The notes beneath the pieces are model-generated. The model saw only the letters and a list, made by a program, of their open reading frames with translations, was not told the DNA's origin and ran no database searches. This document shows, piece after piece, positions 1-62,489 of a stretch of DNA of 64,000 nt. The translations under genes and the position numbers were made by a program. Source of the stretch: Eledone cirrhosa. Taxonomy: Eukaryota. Position 1 is the stretch's first letter; each line of letters starts with the position of its first letter. The stretch is from NCBI GenBank assembly GCA_964016885.1, contig OZ024746.1, forward strand, positions 26,660,001-26,724,000, given 5' to 3'.

Positions 1-1255
<1,255 letters not shown>

Positions 1256-10671: not shown

Positions 10672-13386
<2,715 letters not shown>

Positions 13387-18030: not shown

Positions 18031-18062
18031 CATGAAACACATTTAAACATCTTTTGATCTTA

Positions 18063-18179
<117 letters not shown>

Positions 18180-18700
18180 TATTGTTATATTTGGGGAGGG
18201 TCATATTTGCGTAATATTGCCAGAATTAATAACAGAACACACTCACTGTTTGGTTGGTTTTCGCTTCTCGCTGTCTTTTATATATATATATCTGCGATCT
18301 AACTTACTCGGTCCTCAATGTTGCCATTGACTGACCGGCGGTCAAAAATAATACAGATACAATATAGACAAACACATATATATATAGTTTACATAAATCT
18401 TTCGTTGCACATCTGCAACATCGTCAGTGGTGTTATATTCATTGTTCCTCCTGTTGTGTTGTATGTCTACGCCATTTTTTTTTGTTCAGTCTGTCTATAT
18501 ATTTATTTATTTATTTGCTTGTTTGTTTATCTTATTTTATTTTGTCTTCTTTGCGCATGCGTTTGCGTGTGTGTATAGTGTTATGTGTGATGTGTGACTA
18601 GTGTGTATAGTGTTGTGTCTGCTGGGTGACTAGTGTGTGTTTATGTGCTTGTGTATGTATTTATTTATCTTATTTTATTTAATTTAATTTACTTATTTAT

Positions 18701-21700
18701 TTATACTTCTCTTAGGTCAGTGTTGTTTGTTTGGGTGTTGTTGTTGTTCCACTCATTCTTTCTGTTTAGCTTTGGTCTTCTAATTTCTATTTCACTGGCC
18801 TCTCTGATTTGCCTATCTGCTGGGTCATTCCTATGTTTAGATATTATTCTAATTTCTATGTTGTCTATGTTACCGTCATGATGTTGTCTAGCATGTTCAT
18901 ATAGTACTGACCCGTTTTTTCGTCCTTTTAGTTCCCCCCAGTGTTGGTCTATCCTTTCACCTATGCTACGAGCTGTCTCACCTATGTATGTTGTTGTCGT
19001 GTTTCTGCAAGTACCCTCTGTACATCTTATGCTATAGACTACGTTTCTAGTTTTACAGTTTATCCGGGGGTTCACCTTACATATGATACATTTCCTATTG
19101 GTACAGTGGGTTTTCTTAAAAGGGTAGGTTTTGCTGATCAGGGATTTTATGGTGGTTCCTGGCTTTTCTACCACCTTTATTTTTAAGTGGGTCTTTCTCA
19201 GGGCCTTTCTACACTGGTTAGCTAATTTCCCTCCAGGGGTGGCGTCCACAAACATGACACTCTGATATCTCTGGTTGTCGTACCATGATGTGGCCTTCCC
19301 TATCTTATGTCTAGCCCTATCTAAGCTATTCCATGATTTGCTCCTGTATAGTGGGCAAATTCCTTTCATGTCCAGTTCTATGAGGGTCTTATACTTTTCC
19401 ATGGCTCCTTCGTATACTCTGACTCTGTCTCTTTGGTTGTAGCCAGAGAACTGCATGCGGTTGATGAAGTGTTGGATGTGTCCTTCCATTTCTGTTGGGT
19501 CGCACATGCTGGACACATTCTTCATCACTCGTACCAAATCTGCGATCAGAATATTAAACTTAGCACTACTGGACATTGCTGAGTTTTTGAGTATCAGGTA
19601 TTTGGAGGCCATGGGTTTAGCATAGTGTGAGTGGAGAATTTGGGCTCTCTCGTCTATAGTGTTGATCCAGAGTTCTGTGTCTAATACAGGTAGTCTATTG
19701 TTAGGGTGTTTGGAAGGGAAGTCTATAGTTACAGTTATACTCTGGTGTATGGAATTAGCTATCTGCTGGATGCTTTCCATCGTGCTACGTTCTAAATCAA
19801 ACTTGTTAGTGCTCTCTAGTGGGGGTGTTCTTATAACTATATTGATATCGTCTACATAACGAGAGTACATGATGAGGTCTATGGAGCTTTCATTAAGGAG
19901 ATCTTTAAGTCTCCTTTCCCACCATACCATGAAAAGGTTGGCAACATCGCCAGCTATGCTGACGCCGATGGCTGCTCCCTCATTTTGGGTGTAGATTTTC
20001 TCATTGAACTTAAATATGTGGCCCTTTAGGGTAGTTTTGATACTAGCCCCTATTGCATGTGCGACCATTTTTCTTACCTGATCAGTGTTTTGGGGGGTCC
20101 GTATAGCTTTGGTCCACCCAATCCACCTTCCTATGGGAGTCTTTTTAGCCATTGAGGTTATGGTGGGGGGTCTACCTCTTATAGGTCTACTAGGGCAGAA
20201 ACATCTAAGGTCATGGCTGTCTAGGTAGTCAGTGTCGTAGGTAAGTCTAAGTAGGAGGCCCAGTTCGTCTGTGTCGACGTCGCAGAACTCCACCTCACTC
20301 TCAATGATCATCTCCACACATCTTTTCACAGCAAAATCAATGTTAATGGATGGGTACAGTGACACCACATCCATGCTGCCTATTATGCAGTTGGATAGGC
20401 TCCTGTTTTTGTTGCACTCACTGATTCTGCTGAGGAGGTCCTCTGTACTTTCACATACATCTGGGGACATCTTGATTATGGGGCGTATAACCATTGAGAG
20501 GAAGTAGGAGATCCTGTAGTTGCTAGCTATATTAGCTCCGCATACAGGTCTTGTTGGTGGTCCTATTGTCGGGTCGTCGACAGTCTTGTGGTCTTTGCGG
20601 AGCCCATACAAGGGTGGTATGCCATTGTTAGACGCCTGGAAGTTGTTGGCAGTGCGTCTGCTTGGCTTTAGGATGTCAGTCCACATCATCATGTGAGCGT
20701 TGAGGATTTTTTCTCTCCCATCGTGTGTTAGTTGTGCAACTTCGCTCGTGTTGGTGATGTGGGGTTGCATTGCCTCGATGTAGTTCGGCATGCTATCTAT
20801 TGACATCCTACCAGACTTATCTGTGGGTAGACACACTACCTCACCATCCCTTGTGCGCTGCTTGAGGCTAACCAAGCCTTCTACAGGTTTTATCCCAAGT
20901 TGTTGGGCCTCTGGTCTGCTCTGTCTCATAGTGTACCTGTCTACTACTTGTCTAATCTTATTTCTAGCTATGGTGAACTGTGCCTCCGTCTCGTCATCTA
21001 TTTGTTGTGGTATGCAAACTCTTTTATTAAAGGGTAACCTCGTAGAATAGATATTACCCATCTTATATGTTTTGTCAGCTGGGTTGAAAAATAGTTTCTC
21101 TAAGGGGTTGTCGTTATTTCTATCGTCATAGTTGTGTGTGTTGCTATTATTGTTATCATGGTGGTTGTTGTTGTTTCTATCCTTAGCATTAATATTATTA
21201 TTGTTATGATTGCTAGATGTATTGTTGTTTACTTCACCGTTATTGTTGTTGTTGTTACTGCTATTTCTACCATTGTGGTTGTTACTATTATTATGTTTCT
21301 TGTTTTTGTTGATGTTGCTACATGTACTATTTCCATTATTACCACTGTGGTTATTGTTGTTGTTGTTGTTCGTATTGTTACCGTTATTACTACTGTGGTC
21401 ACTGTTGCTGTGTCTGTGGTTAACGTTTCTATTATTATTATTATTGTGGTTGTTGTTGTTCTGTCTATCGCTAGTATTATTACCATTATCACTATTTCTC
21501 ACTTTCCTGCCATTGTTATGGTTATGGCTGTTATTTCTATACCCAGAGTTATTGTTTATATTACTACTACCGTTATTATTGTTGTTGTTGTTTACCTTTG
21601 CATTCCAACGTATTTTTGTGAAACACTTTTCCAGCTCCGTTTTGCATTCCATAGGATTAATCTTTTTGTAGATGGCAAATTTTGGTGGTAACTTTAGGAT

Positions 21701-21790
21701 TTGTTGTTCTTGTTCACTGATTAAAGTGTTCCCATAGATATTTACTGTGTGGTCATTGGTAAATTCTTCCGGTAGTTTTACATCACTCAT
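18701..21790 (-). CDS. Penelope-like element polyprotein: reverse transcriptase + C-terminal GIY-YIG endonuclease (left arm, probably 5'-truncated)
   Basis: Motifs TDKSGR, LYGLRKDHK, RPVC, SMDVVSLYPS, GAAIG, RYVDD, LPVLD, HYAKPMAS; Cys-rich linker CTNRKCIIC; VVYSIRC...YIGETARSIGERIDQH. The first ~28 codons of the listed ORF (to 21892) read through the inversion junction, so Met at 21790 is used here. Confidence 0.95.
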   Translation of the reverse strand: MSDVKLPEEFTNDHTVNIYGNTLISEQEQQILKLPPKFAIYKKINPMECKTELEKCFTKIRWNAKVNNNNNNNGSSNINNNSGYRNNSHNHNNGRKVRNSDNGNNTSDRQNNNNHNNNNNRNVNHRHSNSDHSSNNGNNTNNNNNNNHSGNNGNSTCSNINKNKKHNNSNNHNGRNSSNNNNNNGEVNNNTSSNHNNNNINAKDRNNNNHHDNNNSNTHNYDDRNNDNPLEKLFFNPADKTYKMGNIYSTRLPFNKRVCIPQQIDDETEAQFTIARNKIRQVVDRYTMRQSRPEAQQLGIKPVEGLVSLKQRTRDGEVVCLPTDKSGRMSIDSMPNYIEAMQPHITNTSEVAQLTHDGREKILNAHMMMWTDILKPSRRTANNFQASNNGIPPLYGLRKDHKTVDDPTIGPPTRPVCGANIASNYRISYFLSMVIRPIIKMSPDVCESTEDLLSRISECNKNRSLSNCIIGSMDVVSLYPSINIDFAVKRCVEMIIESEVEFCDVDTDELGLLLRLTYDTDYLDSHDLRCFCPSRPIRGRPPTITSMAKKTPIGRWIGWTKAIRTPQNTDQVRKMVAHAIGASIKTTLKGHIFKFNEKIYTQNEGAAIGVSIAGDVANLFMVWWERRLKDLLNESSIDLIMYSRYVDDINIVIRTPPLESTNKFDLERSTMESIQQIANSIHQSITVTIDFPSKHPNNRLPVLDTELWINTIDERAQILHSHYAKPMASKYLILKNSAMSSSAKFNILIADLVRVMKNVSSMCDPTEMEGHIQHFINRMQFSGYNQRDRVRVYEGAMEKYKTLIELDMKGICPLYRSKSWNSLDRARHKIGKATSWYDNQRYQSVMFVDATPGGKLANQCRKALRKTHLKIKVVEKPGTTIKSLISKTYPFKKTHCTNRKCIICKVNPRINCKTRNVVYSIRCTEGTCRNTTTTYIGETARSIGERIDQHWGELKGRKNGSVLYEHARQHHDGNIDNIEIRIISKHRNDPADRQIREASEIEIRRPKLNRKNEWNNNNTQTNNTDLREV

Positions 21791-22152
21791 ACGGATGTTG
21801 TCGATGCAACAGTGACCACAGTAGTAATAACGGTAACAATACGAACAACAACAACAACAATAACCACAGTGGTAATAATCGAAATAGTACATGTAGCAAC
21901 ATCAACAAAAACAAGAAACATAATAATAGTAACAACCACAATGGTAGAAATAGCAGTAACAACAACAACAATAACGGTGAAGTAAACAACAATACATCTA
22001 GCAATCATAACAATAATAATATTAATGCTAAGGATAGAAACAACAACAACCACCATGATAACAATAATAGCAACACACACAACTATGACGATAGAAATAA
22101 CGACAACCCCTTAGAGAAACTATTTTTCAACCCAGCTGACAAAACATATAAG

Positions 22153-24513
22153 ATGGGTAATATCTATCCTACGAGGTTACCCTTTAATAAAAGAGTTTGC
22201 ATACCACAACAAATAGATGACGAGACGGAGGCACAGTTCACCATAGCTAGAAATAAGATTAGACAAGTAGTAGACAGGTACACTATGAGACAGAGCAGAC
22301 CAGAGGCCCAACAACTTGGGATAAAACCTGTAGAAGGCTTGGTTAGCCTCAAGCAGCGCACAAGGGATGGTGAGGTAGTGTGTCTACCCACAGATAAGTC
22401 TGGTAGGATGTCAATAGATAGCATGCCGAACTACATCGAGGCAATGCAACCCCACATCACCAACACGAGCGAAGTTGCACAACTAACACACGATGGGAGA
22501 GAAAAAATCCTCAACGCTCACATGATGATGTGGACTGACATCCTAAAGCCAAGCAGACGCACTGCCAACAACTTCCAGGCGTCTAACAATGGCATACCAC
22601 CCTTGTATGGGCTCCGCAAAGACCACAAGACTGTCGACGACCCGACAATAGGACCACCAACAAGACCTGTATGCGGAGCTAATATAGCTAGCAACTACAG
22701 GATCTCCTACTTCCTCTCAATGGTTATACGCCCCATAATCAAGATGTCCCCAGATGTATGTGAAAGTACAGAGGACCTCCTCAGCAGAATCAGTGAGTGC
22801 AACAAAAACAGGAGCCTATCCAACTGCATAATAGGCAGCATGGATGTGGTGTCACTGTACCCATCCATTAACATTGATTTTGCTGTGAAAAGATGTGTGG
22901 AGATGATCATTGAGAGTGAGGTGGAGTTCTGCGACGTCGACACAGACGAACTGGGCCTCCTACTTAGACTTACCTACGACACTGACTACCTAGACAGCCA
23001 TGACCTTAGATGTTTCTGCCCTAGTAGACCTATAAGAGGTAGACCCCCCACCATAACCTCAATGGCTAAAAAGACTCCCATAGGAAGGTGGATTGGGTGG
23101 ACCAAAGCTATACGGACCCCCCAAAACACTGATCAGGTAAGAAAAATGGTCGCACATGCAATAGGGGCTAGTATCAAAACTACCCTAAAGGGCCACATAT
23201 TTAAGTTCAATGAGAAAATCTACACCCAAAATGAGGGAGCAGCCATCGGCGTCAGCATAGCTGGCGATGTTGCCAACCTTTTCATGGTATGGTGGGAAAG
23301 GAGACTTAAAGATCTCCTTAATGAAAGCTCCATAGACCTCATCATGTACTCTCGTTATGTAGACGATATCAATATAGTTATAAGAACACCCCCACTAGAG
23401 AGCACTAACAAGTTTGATTTAGAACGTAGCACGATGGAAAGCATCCAGCAGATAGCTAATTCCATACACCAGAGTATAACTGTAACTATAGACTTCCCTT
23501 CCAAACACCCTAACAATAGACTACCTGTATTAGACACAGAACTCTGGATCAACACTATAGACGAGAGAGCCCAAATTCTCCACTCACACTATGCTAAACC
23601 CATGGCCTCCAAATACCTGATACTCAAAAACTCAGCAATGTCCAGTAGTGCTAAGTTTAATATTCTGATCGCAGATTTGGTACGAGTGATGAAGAATGTG
23701 TCCAGCATGTGCGACCCAACAGAAATGGAAGGACACATCCAACACTTCATCAACCGCATGCAGTTCTCTGGCTACAACCAAAGAGACAGAGTCAGAGTAT
23801 ACGAAGGAGCCATGGAAAAGTATAAGACCCTCATAGAACTGGACATGAAAGGAATTTGCCCACTATACAGGAGCAAATCATGGAATAGCTTAGATAGGGC
23901 TAGACATAAGATAGGGAAGGCCACATCATGGTACGACAACCAGAGATATCAGAGTGTCATGTTTGTGGACGCCACCCCTGGAGGGAAATTAGCTAACCAG
24001 TGTAGAAAGGCCCTGAGAAAGACCCACTTAAAAATAAAGGTGGTAGAAAAGCCAGGAACCACCATAAAATCCCTGATCAGCAAAACCTACCCTTTTAAGA
24101 AAACCCACTGTACCAATAGGAAATGTATCATATGTAAGGTGAACCCCCGGATAAACTGTAAAACTAGAAACGTAGTCTATAGCATAAGATGTACAGAGGG
24201 TACTTGCAGAAACACGACAACAACATACATAGGTGAGACAGCTCGTAGCATAGGTGAAAGGATAGACCAACACTGGGGGGAACTAAAAGGACGAAAAAAC
24301 GGGTCAGTACTATATGAACATGCTAGACAACATCATGACGGTAACATAGACAACATAGAAATTAGAATAATATCTAAACATAGGAATGACCCAGCAGATA
24401 GGCAAATCAGAGAGGCCAGTGAAAGAGAAATTAGAAGACCAAAGCTAAACAGAAAGAATGAGTGGAACAACAACAACACCCAAACAAACAACACTGACCT
24501 AAGAGAAGTATAA
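22153..24513 (+). CDS. Penelope-like element polyprotein RT + GIY-YIG (right arm, 5'-truncated; frame open from ~21806)
   Basis: Same protein as the left arm except S/P and I/R substitutions, plus G/R upstream of the Met at 21880. YVDD and VVY..YIG motifs intact. Confidence 0.95.
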   Translation: MGNIYPTRLPFNKRVCIPQQIDDETEAQFTIARNKIRQVVDRYTMRQSRPEAQQLGIKPVEGLVSLKQRTRDGEVVCLPTDKSGRMSIDSMPNYIEAMQPHITNTSEVAQLTHDGREKILNAHMMMWTDILKPSRRTANNFQASNNGIPPLYGLRKDHKTVDDPTIGPPTRPVCGANIASNYRISYFLSMVIRPIIKMSPDVCESTEDLLSRISECNKNRSLSNCIIGSMDVVSLYPSINIDFAVKRCVEMIIESEVEFCDVDTDELGLLLRLTYDTDYLDSHDLRCFCPSRPIRGRPPTITSMAKKTPIGRWIGWTKAIRTPQNTDQVRKMVAHAIGASIKTTLKGHIFKFNEKIYTQNEGAAIGVSIAGDVANLFMVWWERRLKDLLNESSIDLIMYSRYVDDINIVIRTPPLESTNKFDLERSTMESIQQIANSIHQSITVTIDFPSKHPNNRLPVLDTELWINTIDERAQILHSHYAKPMASKYLILKNSAMSSSAKFNILIADLVRVMKNVSSMCDPTEMEGHIQHFINRMQFSGYNQRDRVRVYEGAMEKYKTLIELDMKGICPLYRSKSWNSLDRARHKIGKATSWYDNQRYQSVMFVDATPGGKLANQCRKALRKTHLKIKVVEKPGTTIKSLISKTYPFKKTHCTNRKCIICKVNPRINCKTRNVVYSIRCTEGTCRNTTTTYIGETARSIGERIDQHWGELKGRKNGSVLYEHARQHHDGNIDNIEIRIISKHRNDPADRQIREASEREIRRPKLNRKNEWNNNNTQTNNTDLREV

Positions 24514-25089
24514 ATAAATAAGTAAATTAAATTAAATAAAATAAGATAAATAAATACATACACAAGCACATAAACACACACTAGTCACCCAGCAGACACA
24601 ACACTATACACACTAGTCACACATCACACATAACACTATACACACACGCAAACGCATGCGCAAAGAAGACAAAATAAAATAAGATAAACAAACAAGCAAA
24701 TAAATAAATAAATATATAGACAGACTGAACAAAAAAAAATGGCGTAGACATACAACACAACAGGAGGAACAATGAATATAACACCACTGACGATGTTGCA
24801 GATGTGCAACGAAAGATTTATGTAAACTATATATATATGTGTTTGTCTATATTGTATCTGTATTATTTTTGACCGCCGGTCAGTCAATGGCAACATTGAG
24901 GACCGAGTAAGTTAGATCGCAGATATATATATATAAAAGACAGCGAGAAGCGAAAACCAACCAAACAGTGAGTGTGTTCTGTTATTAATTCTGGCAATAT
25001 TACGCAAATATGACCCTCCCCAAATATAACAATATCTGTTTCGACACACGATTTCATATAAAAAACCTCGCAAAACTAATTCATCGCCG

Positions 25090-25121
<32 letters not shown>

Positions 25122-25152
25122 TTACATATATATATTTATATATATATACATT

Positions 25153-25215
<63 letters not shown>

Positions 25216-28200
25216 TAAAACCCAGATAGACCATAACCCACCAGAGTACTTGATATTTGGGGTAGTAGAGTGGGTAACATGAAAAGATTCAGGACCCCGA
25301 CGGCTGAACTCCGGCCGTTTCGACAGCTAGATCAAAACTAAAGCGCCAGTAGTCGTGATTAAGGAAGTGGTTTTTATATCGGCTCTCTCACATACCCACA
25401 TATCTCCAGGATTCGTTTCTTGATATTGATTCAATGAAGAGACATCAGATCGTAAATTATCGCTGGGTTGATGCATTTTTGATCCTGCGGTCATGACTAC
25501 CATTATTTACAAGAACATCCAATTTACCAATTCATTTACTTCGGCACAGGTTGAAAGAGTTGTCCCTCCGGCCCACGAAACGTACGACTCTCGTATGGCG
25601 CCATTGTAGTAACAATAAATGTAGAAGAACATTGTAGGAGAAATTTTCACAGTTGGGGAGGTGACATTCAGTGTTCTACAATCATGTAGTTGCTGCTAAA
25701 TGAGAGTTTACAATATTCTTTGTTTATTTTTGTAGTAATTGGGACATTCCTACACTATAACCATATCTATAGTCTAATGCTCTCCATAACTGACCATCTC
25801 TTCATCAATTTAGCTATTATTTATCTTGAAATTCATTATGAAATCTGTCTATAAATTTATTTACACAGTGGCGTATGATTTCGCGAAGATTTAGTTCCTG
25901 CTTCTGTGTAGAAATCCCCAATATACCTAATTTAAATATTTATCACTGATCCAGAATGTAATTATTCTCTTAAAATATAATAAAATATTTCTGGTTTTAA
26001 TTACTGATGAAGTTTAAATATTTCCTTGTTTAATTAATAGAATCTTTAAACCTTTTTTTCTCCTCCAGATTGGCAATATACATTGGTTTTATACATCTCA
26101 ACATGGATGACATTGATATATATTCTTTTATTTTCAGATATTCCAGTTGTTTTCAAAAGTCCAAAACAAGTAATACCCTCAGCGCCCCCAATCCTATTTC
26201 CAGAGAGACCTGCCTACACGCAAGTTGTAAATAATATATAACAAATAAAATAGTTAATTTTTATATAATAAAATAATGTAATATATTCTATGTATAAATA
26301 AATATTATATATTTTATATTTTACTATATTGATATATAATATTGTTATACTTGGGGAGGGTCATATTTGTGTAATATTGCCAGAATTAATAATAGAACAC
26401 ACTTACTGTTGGGTTGGTTTTCGCTTTTCACTTCTGTGTCTTTTATATCGGTAATCTAATTTATTCGGTCCTCAATGTTGCCATTCACTGCCCAACGGTC
26501 AAAAATAATACAGATACAATATAGACACAAACACATATATATAGTTTATCAAAGTTCTTTCGTTGTACATCTTTAACATCGTCAGTGGTGCTATTGTTTC
26601 CTCCCGTTACATTCTATTTTCTACGCCATCTTCATTTAGTCTGTTTATATATTTATTTATTTGTTTATTTTATTTTGACTTCTTTGCGCATGCGTTTGCG
26701 TGTGTGTATAGTGTTTTGTTTGATGTGTGTTCGTGATTGGGTGACTGTGTATTGGTTAATGTATTCTATCTTTACTAGTGTGTGTTTATATGTGTTTGTT
26801 GTTATTGTTGTCTATGTTACCGTCGTGTTGTCTGGCATGTTCGTATAGTACTGACCCGTTTTTTCGTCCTTTTAGTTCCCCCAGTGTTGGTCTATCCTTT
26901 CACCTGTGCTACGAGCTGTCTCTCCTATGTATGTTGCTGTCATGTTTCTGCAAGTACCCTCTGTACATCTTATGCTATAGACTACGTTTCTAGTTTTACA
27001 ATTTATCCGTATAAATTTTATATTTTATATTTTATATTTTATATTTTATATTTTATATTTTATATTTTATATTTAATATACTATTATATCATCTCTATCG
27101 TCCCCTTAGGCTGAAGCACCCCATGACCTTCTCAACGCTCCCGGGGTGGGGGCGTTAGCGTCCACTTTAAGAACCTTTGGTTTATGCGGTGGCATTTTTC
27201 CTCTGGTCAGTTCCCCATAAAATAACCGTTTAGGAAGCCCTTCATCTTCCATCCTGCCCAAATAACCAGCCCAATGCATCTAGCTCATTATAATCCTTAT
27301 CTCAATACTGGTGCTACCCGCTTTTACGGTACAGCAGTATCAGATGTGTAAGAGGACCACTTGATGTTCAGTAAGCGTGGGATACAAGATAAATCACAAT
27401 GAGTGGATTGATGATAATGATGTTGCAATCACCAAGCCTAGTGAAGAGAAAAATAACTTGTATTGAAGTGTCTTGTTGCAGATGGTCCAGTGATGATCAC
27501 TTTTGAGAAGACCTTCAAAGAAACAAAGTCAAAACTGCCATATAAATTTCTAAGAATGAAGAATAAATTATGGTCTGAAGTTTCAGCCGAGATTCAGAAA
27601 GATTATAACTGCAGAGAATTACAGCACAATAAGTTAAGCTTTTGGCTCAGCGCACTAAAACATGGCACCATTGAAGTAAAGAGATGGGAAAGCCCTCATC
27701 AAAGAAATGGACACAATGAAACTCTAGATTTTGATGGAATACCTGTTGAGCTGATCCGCTTTCGAGGTGACAATGTTGCTATGGCCATTCATAGACTAGT
27801 CTCATCAGTTTGGGATTGTGAGCCTATCCCGCAAGGCTGGGTAGATGCAATTTTGCTCTTGATTTACAATGGCAAGAGCTCCAAGTTTAAATGCGGTGGA
27901 TATCGTAGTATAAGTCTGCTCGATTCGGAAGGGAATGTTGTATCCAAGGTCTTGCTGAATCGTCTAAATGGATCTGTCCTGGGGCCATCCCTGATAGCCA
28001 GGAACTAGGCGGAGTACTGTGGACAGGATTTTTGCAGTCCATCAGCTTATGGAGTGCGTTGAGCAGCAAGTGTCACTGTACAAAGTATTTGTGAACTTTA
28101 TCAAAGCCTTTGATACTGTTAATCGTAGTACATTGTGAATCATATTGGGGAAATTTGGATGACGTCATGAATTTGTTGGAATATGCAAAAAATTCCATCA

Positions 28201-30286
28201 AAATATGAAAACAAAAGTGAACTTCAACGGGACACTTTCAGAGCCAATTTCAATGGCAAACGGTGTCTAGCAAGGTGGCATTCCTGCACCCACTCTGTTT
28301 ACCATCAATGACCATATCTTTCTTAATCGGGTGAAATATTCTCTGGTTACGCGTTCCTTGTCACCGATACCATCATAGGATATATTCTCATCTATCCCTA
28401 GGTATCTGTAGCAGTTCTTGTCACATATCGGTGAAACAATTAAGCTATTGATAAAAATGTTGCTAGATTGGCTTGTAGTTTTTCCCCGTTTTACAATCAC
28501 ATATGAACATTTAGGCTAAATTCCATTCCTATATCCTTTGAGAATGCCGTGACCAGGTCAAGATTTTTCTTCATCTCATTTATCTTTTTGGCATAGAGTT
28601 TCAGGTCATCCACAAAGAAATTATCGGTTAGGTTCCTATTTCTCTCCTCCTGGGAACCAATTATGTATCCTTCACATTTCTTGAGCAGAAAGGACAAGGG
28701 GTTTAATGACAGAATAAATAGTAACACAGAGAGAATATACTCCTGTGATATTATATTTCATCCTTCTCCTCTGTTTTTAACTTTAGGATGGTAGCCCAAG
28801 AAGAAGATAGGTTCTCTATGGCTCTGATAATAGTATCTGGGACTATCATCCAAGAGTGGGGAACAGAACTTTCCTGTAGTCCAGCCAGACTGTAACCACA
28901 TTCTTGCTAAGTTGTTGCATCTCTCATTCCAGCTGCTTGCTCATCTGTTATGATGTTATTATTGTCGCAGTGATTTTGGAGAAATAGGTTCAAGCAGGCT
29001 GCATACATTTGATACATTAGATTCTGGCATGCAACGTGTGGGTAGTTATTTTTTTAATTATAAATGGGTGTCTTTGGGGACCAATATTGTTTGTGTTAAT
29101 GTCAACACCCCTGGTATATGTGCATCTCCCAGGAGGGCTTTCTGGTAGAGGTTGATCATATACATCCGATAGAATGTCAGTTTTTTGTACAAGTAGCCAA
29201 TAATCAAGTCTCTTCCTTCTGTTTTATTAGCTTGGAGGTTTCCTATCACAGTCTGAAGGGTATCATCATTTAATCTGTATGGATTTGTTGTAGTGTAGGG
29301 GCAGTAGTTCTTTTACATTTATAGGTGGAACTAGGACCAATACAACCGAATTAAGCTGAGGTAATGGTAATTCAAACAATTTAATTTTAATGATACTTCC
29401 AAAACTGGCTCCTTGTCTCATTAGAATTAAAACTGCTAGATCAGCAGTAGGAAATATTTTTATGCCGGTATACACGCTTAGAAATTAACTGACATTCAAT
29501 GAAGCCACAATTTGAAAAACATATAGTCCCGCTAAAGTTCAAGCCTTTGGAAATATATAATTTCGAATGTAGTTGTTACTTTTCGTAACAATCATAATAA
29601 ATTGAACAGATTAACGTTCAATATAATGAAATCAGCAAGAACGTTCTGCTTCTTTCAGTTGGCAGTAAATATTATTTTGGAAAGTTCGATATAAATATCT
29701 CAACCCTGTGTCAGAGTTTTTTCATGTTTGCCAGACCATCACCAATATTGTTATAGCGAAGTTTATTGTGAAATAAACCTTCAATCATATACTGTATATG
29801 ATATACATTTCAAAGTATATTATATATATAATATGAATACATTACACATTATAATAAATTGTAAACAAACGAAAGTAAGGTTTAAAAAAGTCAAACGTAA
29901 TATAAATTCAATATCTTTAATGTTTCAATAAAAAAAATATAAATATAAAAAGTTTATATAACAAATAATTATCTAAAATATAGATATATATTTTACAGTT
30001 CCAGTTTGGTGTTATCAATAATACCATTTCATTAGGATTATAAATTTAAAGAAATGATACATAATATTACATAGGATATAAATGTAGAGTTCTCTGTTAT
30101 ATATCAAGCATTACAGAGAAATTAGATAAAATATTCATATTTTTAGAAAATATATTTACAAAATTACAACAGTATTGTTGAGAATTGAAGCTGAAACACT
30201 TCTACATATTTATAACGATACACTTGTATCTGGGTGTCTAACTGACAGGGGTACCAAGGAATATTATAGATTGAGCATTAGATATT

Positions 30287-31419
30287 TCACATGTATGATT
30301 TAAGTATTTGTTGAATATGGTTTATATGTTCAAGAAGAGTATGTAGTGTAACCATGGTAAACCATCGATGTTCAATGATTGGAATATCTGTTGGTACAAA
30401 GAGACTCTCATTCACATCCTCATTGTTTTGGACTTTCGAAGACAACTGAAATATCTGAAAATAAAAGGATATATATCAGGTTAAAATATACTCATATAAT
30501 CTTACATATATATGTATATACAGATATGCTATTAACGCTCTTACGTTAGTTTGAGCTTTATATTTTATACATATGTATTATCAAAGAATTTGCATTACTT
30601 AAATGTTGGTAGTATAACTCCTATATAAAGTATCTACTGTAGAATCTTCATTTCATTATAGGAAATATCAAATCAATTAACAATGGATATATTATATTAT
30701 CAATACTTACTGGTAAACTTAGTAGAATTTTCAGATCAAATAAGTAATAAACAGTCTGTCTTAGATAACAATAGAATATAGCATCTGATGTTCGTGTGAG
30801 TTTAGAACAAGCAGCTGGGTAGTAACACTGTGCTCCTATACGTGTGGCAGGAGCACACAGATTGTCATATTCTCTCTTCACCTGATTCTTCATCACAACA
30901 ACATATTTATTAAGGGTTGTAGACATGTTGAACAGAGACATCTGTAATGAAGAATTGTGAGAAATTATATATTTCAGAATCACTGTCATTTCTATAAAAT
31001 GTATTATGAGTTCATGAGACAATAAACATAAGATGTTCAAAGTTAATATATTGTTTTGTCTTAATTTTATGATATTGTGCTAATGATAGAAATATATATA
31101 TACAAACCTTTAATAAATCAATGTTGTTGACGGTGATATTGTCCTGAATATTCATCTGTGGAAATTTAACATCCATATTGTGGAGTAACTTGTTTATAAA
31201 TTGTGGACAGCTTTTAGCAAACAGCAATGGAGCATTATTACACTGTAGAAAAATATATAACACTTTATGAGATAGGATGGAGAGTCTGACACATGATATA
31301 TGGAACAAATTATTTTAATTTAGATTATACTAATATATCTATTATAAATATTCATCTGAGTGAGAAAGTCAGAGTGATAGAGACAGAGAGAGTGAGAGAC
31401 AGAGAGAGAGAGAGAGAGG

Positions 31420-31489
<70 letters not shown>

Positions 31490-32443
31490 AATTGATAAAG
31501 ATAGAAAAATAAAGAGAGAAAGAGAGAGAGTAAGAGAGAGATAGTAAGAAAAGATTGGGAAAAGTAATGAATTCTTAACTTACATAATTAATCAAAGTAT
31601 TGTTTACGGCTGCTGTGGTTCTTTTTGCTAACGTCAATGCCGTATCTATTTCAGTTTTTATATCAGATATATCAGATAATTCAGTTGTTGTTGTTGTAGA
31701 TTGTATAGGTAATCCATGGATCAATGTCATCCATGTTGAGAGACTTAAAACCAATGTATATTGCCAATCTGGAGGAGAAAAAAAGGTATAAAGATTTTAT
31801 TAATTAAACAAGGAAATATTTAAACTTTATCAGTAATTAATACGAGAAATATTTTATTATATTTTAAGAGAAGAATTAGATTCTGGAACATTGATGAATA
31901 TTTAAATTAGGAATATTGGGGATTTCTACACAGAAGCAGGAACTAAATCTTCGCGAAATCATACCCCACTGTGTAAACAAAATTATAGACAGATTTCATA
32001 ATGAATTTCAAGATAATCAATAACTAAATTGATGACGAGATGCTTAGTTATGGAGAGCCTTAGACTATAGTATGGTTGTAGTGTACGACAAAAATAAACA
32101 AACAATATTATAAACTCTCATTTAGCAGCAACTATATGGTTGTAGAACACTGAATGTCACCTCCCCAACTGTGAACATTCCTCCTACAACACACATAGAT
32201 AGATAAAATAGAATAATTAAAAGAAAAGAAAGAGAAGATACTCAAGAATAATCATTGGATAAATGGGAAAGTATGTGAAGAAAGACATCTTACGATTAAA
32301 CACACGATCACATAACTGATGGGGAATGGGTCATTTACCTGAGATATATATATATATATATATATATAATTAATACATTAACTGAGAAAGGCTTAAGCGA
32401 TACTCTGACCAACTCCATCTCACTCAACAAACATTAGGATATA

Positions 32444-32521
<78 letters not shown>

Positions 32522-32531
32522 TGTGTGTGTG

Positions 32532-32570
<39 letters not shown>

Positions 32571-32829
32571 CAACTCAAACAGCAATATTACAGTGACTAT
32601 AACATAGAATATTCTACTTACACATGTTGATCTTTTATAAATTTGTTAGAGGAAATATAAGTTAATGTGAGACGTCAGTAAATTTGCTTTGTACTCTTTT
32701 GAATACAATTAATAAATGATAGTCAATAGAATTATAATGTGACTTTATATACTTACCAGTGAAATTTATATATTTGGAAATACCGTTGATATATATATTG
32801 AAGATGGAGAATTTGAAAGTTCCCAACAT
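30287..32829 (-). CDS. Intact 5-exon gene, 263-aa putative secreted four-helix (IL-6-family-like) cytokine, copy C
   Basis: Exons on the minus strand: 32829-32757 (ATG, 73 nt), 31768-31584 (185), 31242-31108 (135), 30941-30711 (231), 30454-30287 (168, ends TGA). All introns are GT..AG with pyrimidine-rich acceptors; phases 1,0,0,0; continuous frame. Protein: MLGTFKFSIFNIYINGISKYINFT/DWQYTLVLSLSTWMTLIHGLPIQSTTTTTELSDISDIKTEIDTALTLAKRTTAAVNNTLINY/CNNAPLLFAKSCPQFINKLLHNMDVKFPQMNIQDNITVNNIDLLK/MSLFNMSTTLNKYVVVMKNQVKREYDNLCAPATRIGAQCYYPAACSKLTRTSDAIFYCYLRQTVYYLFDLKILLSLP/IFQLSSKVQNNEDVNESLFVPTDIPIIEHRWFTMVTLHTLLEHINHIQQILKSYM. The gene model is well supported; cytokine identity is inference. Confidence 0.85.
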
Positions 32830-33881
32830 CCATAGTTTACTATTTGGATGAGAATAGATTTACTTTCAGTTGTAGAGACCGGCGTATCTATTTATAATCC
32901 CAATTTTAGTAGGAGAGATAAAAGTAGAGGGAGAGAAGGACGGGGTGAGAGGATGGTGAGAGAAAAAAGAGAAAGTTAAGTGAGAGAGAGAGGGGGAGAG
33001 GGAGAGGGGTAGGGAGGGAGTGAAAGTAATATGTAGGATGGAGGACGTGTGAATGGAGGGAGAAGAAGAGAGTAGTTAAGTGTAACAATGAATAACTACT
33101 TTTATCTTAACTTTAGGTCAAACGTCTATTTTACTTTATTTCATTGATGGGAAACATTTATTTCGTAGAAGTGTCATTTTAAACGTTTAGAATCACACAC
33201 AAACACAAATCTTGGTTTTATATATATTATGTTTCTCTCAGTGCCAAAACTTCCAACAAAGATTTTGATGCTAAGAAGTAAATGCTATTTATGTTAAAAT
33301 ATTTGTTTTTCATATTGTAATATTTTCAATTTCTTCTGATAAAGAAATTCGCGTTTAATTTATTGTGTATTGTTTTGTTTGTCTGTTTGTTTTGTTGTTT
33401 TTTTTTCTTTTATTTTCGATATTCCATAACCTCCGCTGAGAAAATACCACAATTCTTGGGATATTCCACACTTTCATTATGAAACATAAGACGGAAGTGT
33501 TACAATACATGTGACCTCCTACACAGCATCACACTGTCATAGTAATAGTAAAATATATGTCAGTTTCCATAAACGCTGAAACATAACTGAAAGTAAACAA
33601 TTATCATTTAGTAAATATAGAATATTAAAGAGGTTATATTTTATATTACGTGCATGTGGTTAAAATGTCTGAAGAATGAATCAATGGACAGATTTGACGG
33701 ACAAAACCAACTGGCAGGGTACCCTGGGTGCAACTCGAGTAAGACGGTAGGGTAAAATACATGAGATCGGCTGGTCTAAATTGAGTATCCAGCCAGATCA
33801 AATATTGATTAAATAGATCATCAATAGTTTTGGAGGATTGGGGGTCATCCTTCTCTCTCCGTATTACATGAGTTATAATTT

Positions 33882-37801: not shown

Positions 37802-37975
<174 letters not shown>

Positions 37976-40900
37976 CAGGTAAATGACCCATTCCCGATCG
38001 TGTACTCATTTAATTGTAAGATGTCTTTCTTCACATATTTTCCCATTTATCCAATGATTATTCTTCAGTATCTTCTCTTTCTTTTCTTTTAATTATTCTA
38101 TTTTAACTATCTATGTGTATTGTAGGAGAAATTTTCACAGTTGGGGAGGTGACATTCAGTGTTCTACAATCATGTAGTTGCTGCTAAATGAGAGTTTACA
38201 ATATTCTTTGTTTATTTTTGTAGTAATTGGGACATTCCTACACTATAACCATATCTATTGTCTAATGCTCTCCATAACTGACCATCTCTTCATCAATTTA
38301 GCTATTATTTATCTTGAAATTCATTATGAAATCTGTCTATAAATTTATTTACACAGTGGCGTATGATTTCGCGAAGATTTAGTTCCTGCTTCTGTGTAGA
38401 AATCCCCAATATACCTAATTTAAATATTTATCACTGATCCAGAATGTAATTATTCTCTTAAAATATAATAAAATATTTCTGGTTTTAATTACTGATGAAG
38501 TTTAAATATTTCCTTGTTTAATTAATAGAATCTTTAAACCTTTTTTTCTCCTCCAGATTGGCAATATACATTGGTTTTATACATCTCAACATGGATGACA
38601 TTGATATATATTCTTTTATTTTCAGATATTCCAGTTGTTTTCAAAAGTCCAAAACAAGTAATACCCTCAGCGCCCCCAATCCTATTTCCAGAGAGACCTG
38701 CCTACACGCAAGTTGTAAATAATATATAACAAATAAAATAGTTAATTTTTATATAATAAAATAATGTAATATATTCTATGTATAAATAAATATTATATAT
38801 TTTTTATTTTACTATATTGATATATATTGTTATACTTGGGGAGGGTCATATTTGTGTAATATTGCCAGAATTAATAATAGAACACACTTACTGTTGGGTT
38901 GGTTTTCGCTTTTCACTTCTGTGTCTTTTATATCGGTAATCTAATTTATTCGGTCCTCGATGTTGCCATTCACTGACCAACAGTCAAAAATAATACAGAT
39001 ACAATATAGACACAAACACATATATATAGTTTATCAAAGTTCTTTCGTTGTACATCTTTAACATCGTCAGTGGTGCTATTGTTTCCTCCCCTTACATTGT
39101 ATTTTCTACGCCATCTTAATTTAGTCTGTTTATATATTTATTTATTTGTTTATTTTATTTTGACTTCTTTGCGCATGCGTTTGCGTGTGTGTATAGTGTT
39201 TTGTTTGATGTGTGTTCGTGATTGGGTGACTGTGTATTGGTTAATGTATTCTATCTTTACTAGTGTGTGTTTATATGTGTTTGTTGTTATTGTGCTTGTG
39301 TATGTATTTATTTATTTATTTATCTATTTATTTATTTATTTATACTTCTCTTAGGTCAGTGTTGTTTGTTTGGGTGTTGTTATTCCATTCATTCTTTCTG
39401 TTTAGCCTTGGCCTTCTAAGATCTATTTCACTGGCCTCTCTGATTTGCCTATCTGCTGGGTCATTTCTATGTTTAGATATTATTCTAATTTCTATGTTGT
39501 CTATGTTACCGTCGTGTTATCTGGCATGTTCGTATAGTACTGACCCGTTTTTTCGTCCTTTTAGTTCCCCCCAGTGTTGGTCTATCCTTTCACCTGTGCT
39601 ACAAGCTGTCTCGCCTATGTATGTTGCTGTCATGTTTCTGCAAGTACCCTCTGTACATCTTATGCTATAGACTACGTTTCTAGTTTTACAATTTATCCGT
39701 ATAAATTTTATATTTTTTATTTTTTATTTTATATTTTATATACTATTATATCATCTCTATCGTCCCCTTAGGCCGAAGCACCCCAGGACCTTCTCAACGC
39801 TCCCGGGGTGGGGGCGTTAGTGTCCACTTTAAGAACCTTTGGTTTATGCGGTGGCATTTTTCCTCTGGTCAGTTCCCCATAAAATAACCGTTTAGGAAGC
39901 CCTTCATCTTCCATCCTGCTCAAGTCACCAGCCCAATGCATCTAGCTCATTATAATCCTTATCTCAATACTGGTGCTACCCGCTTTTACGGTACAGCAGT
40001 ATCAGATGTGTAAGAGGACCACTTGATGTTCAGTAAGCGTGGGATACAAGATAAATCACAATGAGTGGATTGATGATAATGATGTTGCAATCACCAAGCC
40101 TAGTGAAGAGAAAAATAACTTGTATTGAAGTGTCTTGTTGCAGATGGTCCAGTGATGATCACTTTTGAGAAGACCTTCAAAGAAACAAAGTCAAAACTGC
40201 CATATAAATTTCTAAGAATGAAGAATAAATTATGGTCTGAAGTTTCAGCCGAGATTCAGAAAGATTATAACTGCAGAGAATTACAGCACAATAAGTTAAG
40301 CTTTTGGCTCAGCGCACTAAAACATGGCACCATTGAAGTAAAGAGATGGGAAAGCCCTCATCAAAGAGATGGACACAATGAAACTCTAGATTTTGATGGA
40401 ATACCTGTTGAGCTGATCCGCTTTCGATGTGACAATGTTGCTATGGCCATTCATAGACTAGTCTCATCAGTTTGGCATTGTGAGCCTATCCCGCAAGGCT
40501 GGGTAGATGCAATTTTGCTCTTGATTTACAATGGCAAGAGCTCCAAGTTTAAATGCGGTGGTTATCGTAGTATAAGTCTGTTCGATTCGGAAGGGAATGT
40601 TGTATCCAAGGTCTTGCTGAATCGTCTAAATGGATCTGTCCTGGGGCCATCCCTGATAGCCAGGAACTAGGCGGAGTACTGTGGACAGGATTTTTGCAGT
40701 CCATCAGCTTATGGAGTGCGTTGAGCAGCAAGTGTCACTGTACAAAGTATTTGTGAACTTTATCAAAGCCTTTGATACTGTTAATCGTAGTACATTGTGA
40801 ATCATATTGGGGAAATTTGGATGCCGTCATGAATTTGTTGGAATATGCAAAAAATTCCATCAAAATATGAAAACAAAAGTGAACTTCAACGGGACACTTT

Positions 40901-42948: not shown

Positions 42949-44077
42949 TCACATGTATGATTTAAGTATTTGTTGAATATGGTTTATATGTTCAAGAAGA
43001 GTATGTAGTGTAACCATGGTAAACCATCGATGTTCAATGATTGGAATATCTGTTGGTACAAAGAGACTCTCATTCACATCCTCATTGTTTTGGACTTTCG
43101 AAGACAACTGAAATATCTGAAAATAAAAGGATATATATCAGGTTAAAATATACTCATATAATCTTACATATATATGTATATACAGATATGCTATTAACGC
43201 TCTTACGTTAGTTTGAGCTTTATACTTTATACATATGTATTATCAAAGAATTTGCATTACTTAAATGTTAGTAGTATAACTCCTATATAAAGTATCTACT
43301 GTAGAAACTTCATTTCATTATAGGAAATATCAAATCAATTAACAATGGATATATTATATTATCAATACTTACTGGTAAACTTAGTAGAATTTTCAGATCA
43401 AACAAGTAATAAACAGTCTGTCTTAGATAACAATAGAATATAGCATCTGATGTTCGTGTGAGTTTAGAACAAGCAGCTGGGTAGTAACACTGTGCCCCTA
43501 TACGTGTGGCAGGAGCACACAGATTGTCATATTCTCTCTTCACCTGATTCTTCATCACAACAACATATTTATTAAGAGTTGTAGACATGTTGAACAGAGA
43601 CATCTGTAATGAAGAATTGTGAGAAATTATATATTTCAGAATCACTGTCATTTCTATAAAATGTATTATGAGTTCATGAGACAATAAACATAAGATGTTC
43701 AAAGCTAATATATTGTTTTGTCTTAATTTTATGATATTGTGCTAATGATAGAAATATATATATACAAACCTTTAATAAATCAATGTTGTTGACGGTGATA
43801 TTGTCCTGAATATTCATCTGTGGAAATTTAACATCCATATTGTGGAGTAACTTGTTTATAAATTGTGGACAGCTTTTAGCAAACAGCAATGGAGTATTGT
43901 TACACTGTAGAAAAATATATAACACTTTATGAGATAGGATGGAGAGTCTGACACATGATATATGGAACACATTATTTCAATTTAGATTATACTAATATAT
44001 CTATTATAAATATTCATCTGAGTGAGAAAGTCAGAGTGATAGAGACAGAGAGAGTGAGAGACAGAGAGAGAGAGAGA

Positions 44078-44163
<86 letters not shown>

Positions 44164-45017
44164 AATTGATAAAGATAGAAAAATAAAGAGAGAAAGAGAG
44201 AGAGTAAGAGAGAGATAGTAAGAAAAGATTGGGAAAAGTAATGAATTCTTAACTTACATAATTAATCAAAGTATTGTTTACGGCTGCTGTGGTTCTTTTT
44301 GTTAACGTCAATGCCGTATCTATTTCAGTTTTTATATCAGATATATCAGATAATTCAGTTGTTGTTGTTGTAGATTGTATAGGTAATCCATGGATCAATG
44401 TCATCCATGTTGAGAGACATAAAACCAATGTATATTGCCAATCTGGAGGAGAAAAAAAGGTATAAAGATTTTATTAATTAAACAAGGAAATATTTAAACT
44501 TTATCAGTAATTAATACGAGAAATATTTTATTATATTTTAAGAGAAGAATTAGATTCTGGAACATTGATGAATATTTAAATTAGGAATATTGGGGATTTC
44601 TACACAGAAGCAGGAACTAAATCTTCGCGAAATCATACCCCACTGTGTAAACAAAATTATAGACAGATTTCATAATGAATTTCAAGATAATCAATAACTA
44701 AATTGATGACGAGATGCTTAGTTATGGAGAGCCTTAGACTATAGTATGGTTGTAGTGTACTACAAAAATAAACAAACAATATTATAAACTCTCATTTAGC
44801 AGCAACTATATGGTTGTAGAACACTGAATGTCACCTCCCCAACTGTGAACATTCCTCCTACAACACACATAGATAGATAAAATAGAATAATTATAAGAAA
44901 AGAAAGAGAAGATACTGAAGAATAATCATTGGATAAATGGGAAAGTATGTGAAGAAAGACATCTTACGATTAAACACACGATCACATAACTGATGGGGAA
45001 TGGGTCATTTACCTGAG

Positions 45018-45049
<32 letters not shown>

Positions 45050-45122
45050 TACATTAACTGAGAAAGGCTTAAGCGATACTCTGACCAACTCCATCTCACT
45101 CAACAAACATTAGGATATACCA

Positions 45123-45218
<96 letters not shown>

Positions 45219-45477
45219 CAACTCAAACAGTAATATTACAGTGACTATAACATAGAATATTCTACTTACACATGTTGATCTTTTATAAATTTGTTAGAGG
45301 AAATATAAGTTAATGTGAGACGTCAGTAAATTTGCTTTGTACTCTTTTGAATACAATTAATAAATGATAGTCAATAGAATTATAATGTGACTTTATATAC
45401 TTACCAGTGAAATTTATATATTTGGAAATACCGTTGATATATATATTGAAGATGGAGAATTTGAAAGTTCCCAACAT
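42949..45477 (-). CDS. Intact 5-exon putative helical cytokine gene, copy D (263 aa)
   Basis: Exons 45477-45405, 44442-44258, 43904-43770, 43603-43373, 43116-42949. Same exon sizes and GT-AG sites as copy C; open frame. Confidence 0.85.
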
Positions 45478-54837: not shown

Positions 54838-55970
54838 TCACATGTATGATTTAAGTATTTGTTGAATATGGTTTATATGTTCAAGAAGAGTATGTAGTGT
54901 AACCATGGTAAACCATCGATGTTCAATGATTGGAATATCTGTTGGTACAAAGAGACTCTCATTCACATCCTCATTGTTTTGGACTTTCGAAGACAACTGA
55001 AATATCTGAAAATAAAAGGATATATATCAGGTTAAAATATACTCATATAATCTTACATATATATGTATATACAGATATGCTATTAACGCTCTTACGTTAG
55101 TTTGAGCTTTATACTTTATACATATGTATTATCAAAGAATTTGCATTACTTAAATGTTAGTAGTATAACTCCTATATAAAGTATCTACTGTAGAAACTTC
55201 ATTTCATTATAGGAAATATCAAATCAATTAACAATGGATATATTATATCATCAATACTTACTGGTAAACTTAGTAGAATTTTCAGATCAAATAAGTAATA
55301 AACAGTCTGTCTTAGATAACAATAGAATATAGCATCTGATGTTCGTGTGAGTTTAGAACAAGCAGCTGGGTAGTAACACTGTGCCCCTATACGTGTGGCA
55401 GGAGCACACAGATTGTCATATTCTCTCTTCACCTGATTCTTCATCACAACAACATATTTATTAAGGGTTGTAGACATGTTGAACAGAGACATCTGTAATG
55501 AAGAATTGTGAGAAATTATATATTTCAGAATCACTGTCATTTCTATAAAATGTATTATGAGTTCATGAGACAATAAACATAAGATGTTCAAAGTTAATAT
55601 ATTGTTTTGTCTTAATTTTATGATATTGTGCTAATGATAGAAATATATATATACAAACCTTTAATAAATCAATGTTGTTGACGGTGATATTGTCCTGAAT
55701 ATTCATCTGTGGAAATTTAACATCCATATTGTGGAGTAACTTGTTTATAAATTGTGGACAGCTTTTAGCAAACAGCAATGGAGCATTATTACACTGTAGA
55801 AAAATATATAACACTTTATGAGATAGGATGGAGAGTCTGACACATGATATATGGAACAAATTATTTTAATTTAGATTATACTAATATATCTATTATAAAT
55901 ATTCATCTGAGTGAGAAAGTCAGAGTGATAGAGACAGAGAGAGTGAGAGACAGAGAGAGAGAGAGAGAGG

Positions 55971-56046
<76 letters not shown>

Positions 56047-57000
56047 AATTGATAAAGATAGAAAAATAAAGAGAGAAAGAGAGAGAGTAAGAGAGAGATA
56101 GTAAGAAAAGATTGGGAAAAGTAATGAATTCTTAACTTACATAATTAATCAAAGTATTGTTTACGGCTGCTGTGGTTCTTTTTGTTAACGTCAATGCCGT
56201 ATCTATTTCAGTTTTTATATCAGATATATCAGATAATTCAGTTGTTGTTGTTGTAGATTGTATAGGTAATCCATGGATCAATGTCATCCATGTTGAGAGA
56301 CTTAAAACCAATGTATATTGCCAATCTGGAGGAGAAAAAAAGGTATAAAGATTTTATTAATTAAACAAGGAAATATTTAAACTTTATCAGTAATTAATAC
56401 GAGAAATATTTTATTATATTTTAAGAGAAGAATTAGATTCTGGAACATTGATGAATATTTAAATTAGGAATATTGGGGATTTCTACACAGAAGCAGGAAC
56501 TAAATCTTCGCGAAATCATACCCCACTGTGTAAACAAAATTATAGACAGATTTCATAATGAATTTCAAGATAATCAATAACTAAATTGATGACGAGATGC
56601 TTAGTTATGGAGAGCCTTAGACTATAGTATGGTTGTAGTGTACGACAAAAATAAACAAACAATATTATAAACTCTCATTTAGCAGCAACTATATGGTTGT
56701 AGAACACTGAATGTCACCTCCCCAACTGTGAACATTCCTCCTACAACACACATAGATAGATAAAATAGAATAATTAAAAGAAAAGAAAGAGAAGATACTC
56801 AAGAATAATCATTGGATAAATGGGAAAGTATGTGAAGAAAGACATCTTACGATTAAACACACGATCACATAACTGATGGGGAATGGGTCATTTACCTGAG
56901 ATATATATATATATATATATATATAATTAATACATTAACTGAGAAAGGCTTAAGCGATACTCTGACCAACTCCATCTCACTCAACAAACATTAGGATATA

Positions 57001-57080
<80 letters not shown>

Positions 57081-57090
57081 TGTGTGTGTG

Positions 57091-57124
<34 letters not shown>

Positions 57125-57382
57125 ACAACTCAAACAGCAATATTACAGTGACTATAACAAAATATTCTACTTACACATGTTGATCTTTTATAAATTTGTT
57201 AGAGGAAATATAAGTTAATGTGAGACGTCAGTAAATTTGCTTTGTACTCTTTTGAATACAATTAATAAATGATAGTCAATAGAATTATAATGTGACTTTA
57301 TATACTTACCAGTGAAATTTATATATTTGGAAATACCGTTGATATATATATTGAAGATGGAGAATTTGAAAGTTCCCAACAT
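54838..57382 (-). CDS. Intact 5-exon putative helical cytokine gene, copy E (263 aa)
   Basis: Exons 57382-57310, 56325-56141, 55793-55659, 55492-55262, 55005-54838. Same exon sizes and GT-AG sites as copy C; open frame. Confidence 0.85.

Positions 57383-62358: not shown

Positions 62359-62489
<131 letters not shown>

Follow-up and report, generated by a model that had tools for sequence, protein, structure and literature searches.

A five-exon gene on the minus strand of a 64,000-nt stretch of the Eledone cirrhosa genome (here called the window) probably encodes a secreted, N-glycosylated long-chain class I cytokine of the IL-6/IL-11/LIF/CNTF/IL-12p35 group, which would bind a gp130/Domeless-type receptor and signal through JAK-STAT. 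The family to which it belongs is real and uncharacterised, occurs in a lineage where the JAK/STAT ligand is an open question, and is present here as an unusual array. The gene is predicted to work like a gp130-family cytokine, and its precursor length, modelled fold and exon structure are those by which lamprey IL-6 was recognised. It is to be classed with the long-chain class I cytokines, as a cephalopod member, and not as an IL-6 orthologue, because its cysteine layout, Pfam searches and position relative to TOMM7 all depart from IL-6.

The gene model (Table 1) was recomputed from the sequence and proved identical to that of an earlier, sequence-only reading: five exons with GT-AG introns throughout and intron phases 1,0,0,0 splice into an ORF of 792 nt (263 aa). 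The six Cys noted at the time in the predicted mature part are conserved across the family, and the several N-x-S/T sequons amount to five, four of them in the mature part. When four sequencing runs were aligned to positions 30100-33000, a 775-nt contig of run X4 skipped precisely the introns of 341, 166 and 256 nt, joining 31584/31242, 31108/30941 and 30711/30454 and extending 55 nt into the 3' UTR; runs X1-X3, from one sample, were unspliced over the same interval. Spliced reads had been proposed as a check at four junctions, and the contig supplies them at junctions 2, 3 and 4 but not at junction 1. X4 is a run of unrecorded kind, treated as RNA solely because its contig is spliced, and the evidence consists of one contig with a depth of about 5, a poor measure. 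This contig represents transcription and splicing of some array copy and says nothing on level or tissue. The gene is not a chance arrangement of open frames, since 51%-identical paralogues of exons 2-5 have the same layout and database homologues match at E 1e-95. Exon 4 is its best conserved exon. The 3' UTR contains eight ATTTA motifs in ~790 nt, but the region is very AT-rich.

Translation had been proposed to start in a 73-nt first exon, giving the 263-aa product. That frame is open in this copy, but a 2-nt deletion breaks it in 10 of the 19 array copies that could be read there (11 of 30 could not), and a short ATG exon fits the relatives better. Both forms, with and without the deletion, are also present in DNA runs. 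Exons 2-5 are free of frameshifts and stops in all 30 copies. Paralogues L032 and L041 have no in-frame ATG at the place homologous to the proposed exon. A short ATG exon of 4 or 10 nt (10 nt in the paralogues), followed by a GTAAG donor and lying 46-126 nt downstream of a TATA-like box, occurs in the window, L032/L033, L041 and L042; it was looked for in L040 and L043 and not located. Within the array the ATG and donor of the 32625-32622 exon are found in 29 of 30 copies, the remaining one being unreadable, and the N-termini of database homologues lie only 3-4 residues ahead of exon-2 sequence. Because of the frameshifted copies, the short-exon paralogues and these N-termini, the coding start is probably at 32625-32622, with a product of 240 aa rather than 263 and a predicted signal peptide of ~20 residues. 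The X4 contig opens at exon 2, where its first base, a G, suits the 32757 donor or an unspliced intron and not the short exon, although this is a single base at a contig end. The GTAAG just ahead of the TATA-like box is what was read as the donor of exon 1. A strict kappaB consensus scan gave no match in the promoter; the degenerate element listed in Table 1 is termed kappaB-like by comparison with the consensus, and its function is presumed.

Table 1. Features of the gene and of the other array copies in the window.
Feature	Position	Strand	Basis
Exon 1 as first proposed (73 nt); probably promoter, at most an alternative exon	32757..32829	-	Open in this copy
Degenerate kappaB-like element, ~25 nt upstream of TATA-like box	32776..32784	-	Similar element at same position in L032/L033 and L041 promoters
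TATA-like box	32743..32751	-	77-126 nt upstream of short ATG exon in window, L032 and L041; 5/5 window copies
Probable true first coding exon, ATG + 1 nt, phase 1 (4 nt)	32622..32625	-	Array copies, paralogues, database N-termini
Exon 2 (185 nt): predicted signal peptide and helix A	31584..31768	-	ORF model, X4 contig, homologue fold
Exon 3 (135 nt): long AB loop with Cys64, Cys75 and mini-helix, to start of helix B	31108..31242	-	ORF model, X4 contig, homologue fold
Exon 4 (231 nt): helix B, Cys-rich BC loop (Cys137, 147, 153, 166), helix C	30711..30941	-	ORF model, X4 contig, homologue fold
Exon 5 (168 nt coding incl. stop): CD loop and helix D	30287..30454	-	ORF model, X4 contig, homologue fold
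Complete array copy	10672..13185	-	Sequence comparison within window
Complete array copy	42949..45273	-	Sequence comparison within window
Complete array copy	54838..57178	-	Sequence comparison within window
5' part of fifth copy (L021), running on beyond window	1..1053	-	Sequence comparison

By hydropathy, the 240-aa model and all nine full-length homologues examined carry an N-terminal hydrophobic stretch. It is a modest one, with a mean of 1.65 over 11 residues; in the mature parts of the same proteins no window of 19 residues exceeds 1.32, so none has a long hydrophobic stretch there. With 240 aa, or 263 with the exon first proposed, the precursor lies inside the 150-280 aa range that serves as a cytokine criterion (bioRxiv 10.64898/2026.04.02.716188).

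The fold is that of AF2 models of two homologues, P0002 and P0006, to which the 240-aa model is 57% and 54% identical; family alignments were the input, and the models stand in for the window protein. P0002 (pLDDT 79.2, pTM 0.75, with two of its five models near pLDDT 60) is predicted to form helices at residues 27-63, 101-139, 157-183 and 205-231 and a mini-helix inside the long AB loop, and P0006 (pLDDT 82.5, pTM 0.78) has similar helices. The four helix-like stretches recognised by the sequence-only reading coincide with helices A-D of the homologue model. In both models the four helices are long, as are the AB and CD loops, and the whole domain aligns with IL-11, IL-6 and LIF. In searches of 48,161 solved chains, rows 1-27 were helical cytokines for either model, and the first non-cytokine had Z 7.6. 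The leading rows were IL-11 (Z 15.0, rmsd 2.6, 153 aligned), LIF (14.7), IL-6 (14.5, rmsd 2.9, 148 aligned), CLCF1 (14.4) and CNTF (14.0) for P0002, and IL-11 (15.4), CLCF1 (15.0), LIF (14.8) and IL-6 (14.7) for P0006, scores to be read with the caveat that helical bundles may reach Z 13-14 with this aligner through arrangement alone. As these rows are tied, no single cytokine is closest. The long-chain four-helix fold claimed at the outset thus agrees with the homologue models, for which the IL-6/gp130 family is the nearest group. Foldseek, proposed as a check, returned no match at E <= 0.001, the best being 0.032 (prolactin), with cytokines making up 38 of the 44 matches listed. The Atlas model of a distant paralogue, P0013 (33% identical), aligned with a cardiotrophin-1 cluster at TM 0.70. 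Among the language-model feature neighbours of P0006, which scored 0.90-0.92, are clusters of IL6, GH, IL12 and LIF, one arthropod cluster without a name and a mollusc cluster of 114 members (11% PF00489); these neighbours are support and not proof, since shuffled proteins attain a score of 0.9 in 4-10% of cases.

Mapped on the homologue model, introns 2 and 4 mark the ends of helices A and C, the former just ahead of the first Cys; intron 1 falls in the predicted signal peptide and intron 3 five residues inside helix B. IL-6 has its introns at these helix boundaries too, in phases 1,0,0,0, so the claim of an IL-6-type five-exon layout holds, the first exon being short and ending in phase 1 under either start. 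The cysteines are arranged differently. Two stand at the start of the AB loop and four between the end of helix B and helix C, whereas IL-6 canonically has four Cys in two disulfides (two Cys in hagfish and some fish). In IL-11 the first intron follows 7 bp after the start (PMC3271213). The exon structure by which IL-6 was recognised in lamprey is likewise present. TOMM7 is not beside the array, the sole Tom7 match lying on C11 and the array on C6, but this weighs little because the linkage is reported to be lost in lamprey too (bioRxiv 10.64898/2026.04.02.716188). Interferons are described as having five helices and intron phases 0-0-0-0 (bioRxiv 10.64898/2026.05.30.728932); an assignment to them or to class II cytokines disagrees with the phase-1 intron 1 found under either exon-1 model, and interferons scored Z 8.5-10.3, far lower than the gp130 family.

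Six database proteins matched exon 4, their sources being Octopus vulgaris, O. sinensis and Argonauta, and 18 matches at E <= 0.001 were found among 1.84 billion representative proteins. Ten of these were looked up: eight are named cephalopod proteins, with O. bimaculoides and the cuttlefish Sepia pharaonis among the species; another, without a name, is almost identical to the cuttlefish protein, and the last is a repetitive chance match. Every named relative is annotated as uncharacterised or hypothetical. The gene had been attributed to an invertebrate, probably a cephalopod, and its octopus, argonaut and cuttlefish relatives agree with this, pointing to an octopod-like cephalopod; a profile search added no protein beyond these relatives. 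A tree of 22 rows resolves at least two paralogue groups common to octopod species, plus species-specific duplicates, and leaves the basal branches unsorted. Three Octopus vulgaris gene models, P0001, P0009 and P0010, have repeated exon 3-4 units, and are probably fused predictions across another tandem cluster of the family. The likeness to IL-6 once drawn by eye is not statistically detectable: the Pfam IL6 profile (PF00489), suggested as a check, matched none of the 22 family members at E <= 1 and none of four exons, and identity in the IL-6 structural alignments is 13-15%. Neither Hormone_1 nor IL12 matched any of the 22, Pfam searches with five homologues gave chance rows only and no cytokine match, and searches of PDB sequences with two profiles gave zero rows and one chance row.

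With a 151-nt probe, 30 gene copies of 97-100% identity were located at C6:26.45-26.85 Mb (~400 kb), in units of ~12 kb, together with one partial copy containing exons 4-5 only. Three outer copies are inverted, and the window takes in four whole copies and part of a fifth. The 30 copies encode 19 distinct proteins at a mean coding distance of 0.9% (over the 29 copies that have the same length). The distinct changes comprise 14 synonymous ones on ~152 sites and 23 non-synonymous ones on ~562. An assembly artefact is unlikely in view of the 19 distinct proteins, the differing spacers and a copy-specific retroelement. No further family members occur in the ~100 kb flanks on either side. Older paralogues form an inverted pair at C6:12.42 and 12.43 Mb, with 51% identity, a dN/dS of 0.46 and no difference in the length of exons 3 and 4, and others lie at C6:12.445, C6:10.51 and C4:128.16-128.22 Mb (four matches, two read). 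The family is under purifying selection. The matches at C4:128.16-128.22 Mb, which include L040 and L041, stand ~20 kb apart as a second small array, and L040 and L041 both stop three codons before the end of the window gene. L031:4798-6095 (C2:270.97 Mb) is a decayed copy in which exons 2 and 3 are frameshifted and exons 4-5 are missing from the 9.9 kb that were read, and L044:4666-5867 (C19:9.92 Mb) consists of five tandem repeats of ~270 nt, each with the first half of exon 4.

The array units carry further elements. An inverted gene fragment, ~90% identical, is present in each (6090-6575, 25632-26117, 37949-38605, 50162-50647 and 62462-63119), in which intron 1 plus 49 nt from the start of exon 2 are fused to the end of intron 4 and the start of exon 5. 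The fusion is also seen in DNA runs, and the fragments may be a source of long hairpin or antisense RNA. At 18061-25172 two inverted retroelement copies, 98.8% identical, are inserted in one unit; their ORFs at 18701-21901 (-) and 21763-24513 (+) encode 1066 and 916 aa with a weak RVT_1 match, and from a C-terminal GIY-YIG-like motif they are presumably of Penelope type. A decayed LINE-like fragment has been amplified with the unit (8075-8479, 27457-28008, 40119-40670 and 51993-52544), and a Pfam scan of one copy gave no match.

The receptor was sought in the same genome. Profile searches with PF09240 and PF06328 gave no match, and PF09067 gave one, full of stops. A PF25552 match, L046 (E 0.18), was rejected as chance, as splice sites were not evident and 120 kb of sequence showed no FN3-like neighbour. 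A WSxWS-type pattern matched 57 times vs 42 for its control; of the 30 loci that were read, none was receptor-like. These blanks are uninformative on absence, since a control search with STAT_bind likewise found no match and the genome search is thus too insensitive. The fn3 search was dominated by one giant gene. At C10:12.89-13.03 Mb (L110-L139) there is a compact gene or cluster whose FN3 matches number well over 100, all on one strand and for the most part with a single match in each exon.

In the favoured reading, the mature protein, of ~220 aa and 25 kDa before glycans, belongs to a coleoid cephalopod family and would be secreted, with four N-glycan sites and three disulfides. Induced through the kappaB-like/TATA promoter, it would bind a gp130/Domeless-type receptor and activate JAK-STAT in immune, wound or blood-forming tissue, and a recent array expansion would raise its dose. 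The same fold and receptor class could instead serve an endocrine or growth role like that of GH, prolactin or leptin, in growth, maturation or regeneration and not in inflammation. The bundle is indeed common to GH/prolactin-type hormones (Z 10-13; placental lactogen 12.8-13.0, GH 10.2-10.9, leptin 10.1-10.5), their genes have a similar five-exon layout, prolactin heads the non-significant Foldseek rows, and a cluster with 24% Hormone_1 ranks third among Atlas neighbours. However, GH and prolactin occupy ranks 8-14 in the search of 48,161 chains, gp130-family cytokines score ~2 Z higher with lower rmsd, and Hormone_1 is absent as stated. The kappaB-like element is conserved at the promoter, and rapid divergence with repeated lineage-specific duplication is more typical of immune genes; a hormone is thus unlikely.

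The copy number raises a different question, as 30 copies are unusual for a ligand acting at low concentration. Thirty intact copies at 0.9% mean coding distance would suit a gene co-opted for bulk output of a gland secretion (saliva, egg coat, spermatophore or mucus) and not for signalling. This is quite improbable: the fold, cysteines and promoter context are common to low-copy paralogues, and the X4 transcript contig has a depth of only ~5, a poor measure from a run whose tissue is unrecorded. That a secreted four-helix bundle became cytokine-like by convergence, with no class I receptor partner, would account for the 8-17% identity in structural alignments and for a sequence-level link confined to cephalopods, but it is very hard to reconcile with cytokines in 27 of the 27 top rows and a gap to other bundles, or with the length of the AB and CD loops, the predicted signal peptide and the intron layout, all of which agree with IL-6-type genes. 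The long-chain cytokine reading may be carried further, and here the balance is even: the family would descend from a bilaterian IL-6/IL-11-type ancestor, keeping its intron layout and kappaB-TATA promoter, and would be the missing ligand set of the cephalopod gp130/Dome-like receptor, in a multi-ligand JAK/STAT network built independently of vertebrates and with one ligand amplified to 30 working copies.

A 2026 BLAST survey at >= 30% identity, with two Octopus species in its species list, reports IL6 in vertebrates only, and describes molluscs as having an IL6R, JAK and STAT module with no known ligand (PMC13203501). The receptors have been traced back to molluscs (PMC8226699; PMC12162339). 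The available text of PMC9756803 lists an oyster IFN-like protein and does not contain the terms IL-6 and IL-12, and the same structure-plus-intron route is described for IL-1 (PMC13736523). A literature search, mostly outside subscription journals, found no description of a cephalopod long-chain cytokine family and no papers for six LOC identifiers. The present family supplies candidate ligands, with accessions, in the surveyed Octopus species, where databases file them as uncharacterised, and thereby makes the mollusc JAK/STAT ligand question directly testable. If the reading is true, the IL-6-type gene layout predates the protostome-deuterostome split, and the family gives a way into the study of inflammation, regeneration and blood formation in cephalopods. 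This significance is tempered by prior art, the oyster IL-12p35 homologue and insect Unpaired, and by a receptor partner that is so far a proposed one.

Among known systems, GH, prolactin and placental lactogen (1a22_A, 1f6f_A, 2q98) share the long-chain bundle but have lower Z, rmsd 4.0-4.9 and another Cys pattern; GH/prolactin genes have five exons and tandem expansions. IL-27p28, IL-23p19 and IL-12p35 belong to the same fold group (Z 11.7-13.5), and the cephalopod gene has no IL12 Pfam match. For a molluscan long-chain cytokine, an oyster IL-12p35 homologue reportedly described by Xin et al. in 2021 is prior art. Drosophila Unpaired 1-3, named in PMC13203501, are comparable as protostome JAK/STAT ligands of a gp130-like receptor, but no sequence link to the cephalopod family was found. 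Lamprey and hagfish IL-6, also invisible to BLAST, were recognised by length, by a signal peptide and a predicted bundle, by structural similarity and by exon layout; unlike the cephalopod gene, they are described with synteny, the IL-6 Cys pattern and STAT5 assays (bioRxiv 10.64898/2026.04.02.716188). From the gp130-family members IL-11, LIF, IL-6, CLCF1 and CNTF (8qy4_A, 7n0a_C, 1alu_A, 8d7h_D, 1cnt_1) the gene differs in its 9-15% identity with no Pfam match, in a BC region that is enlarged and holds four further Cys, in not being linked to TOMM7 and in its 30-copy array. It resembles them in predicted fold (Z 13.6-15.4, with rmsd 2.6-3.7 over 137-164 residues), in size and probable signal peptide, in having five exons of which the first is short and ends in phase 1, and in a Cys pair at the start of the AB loop.
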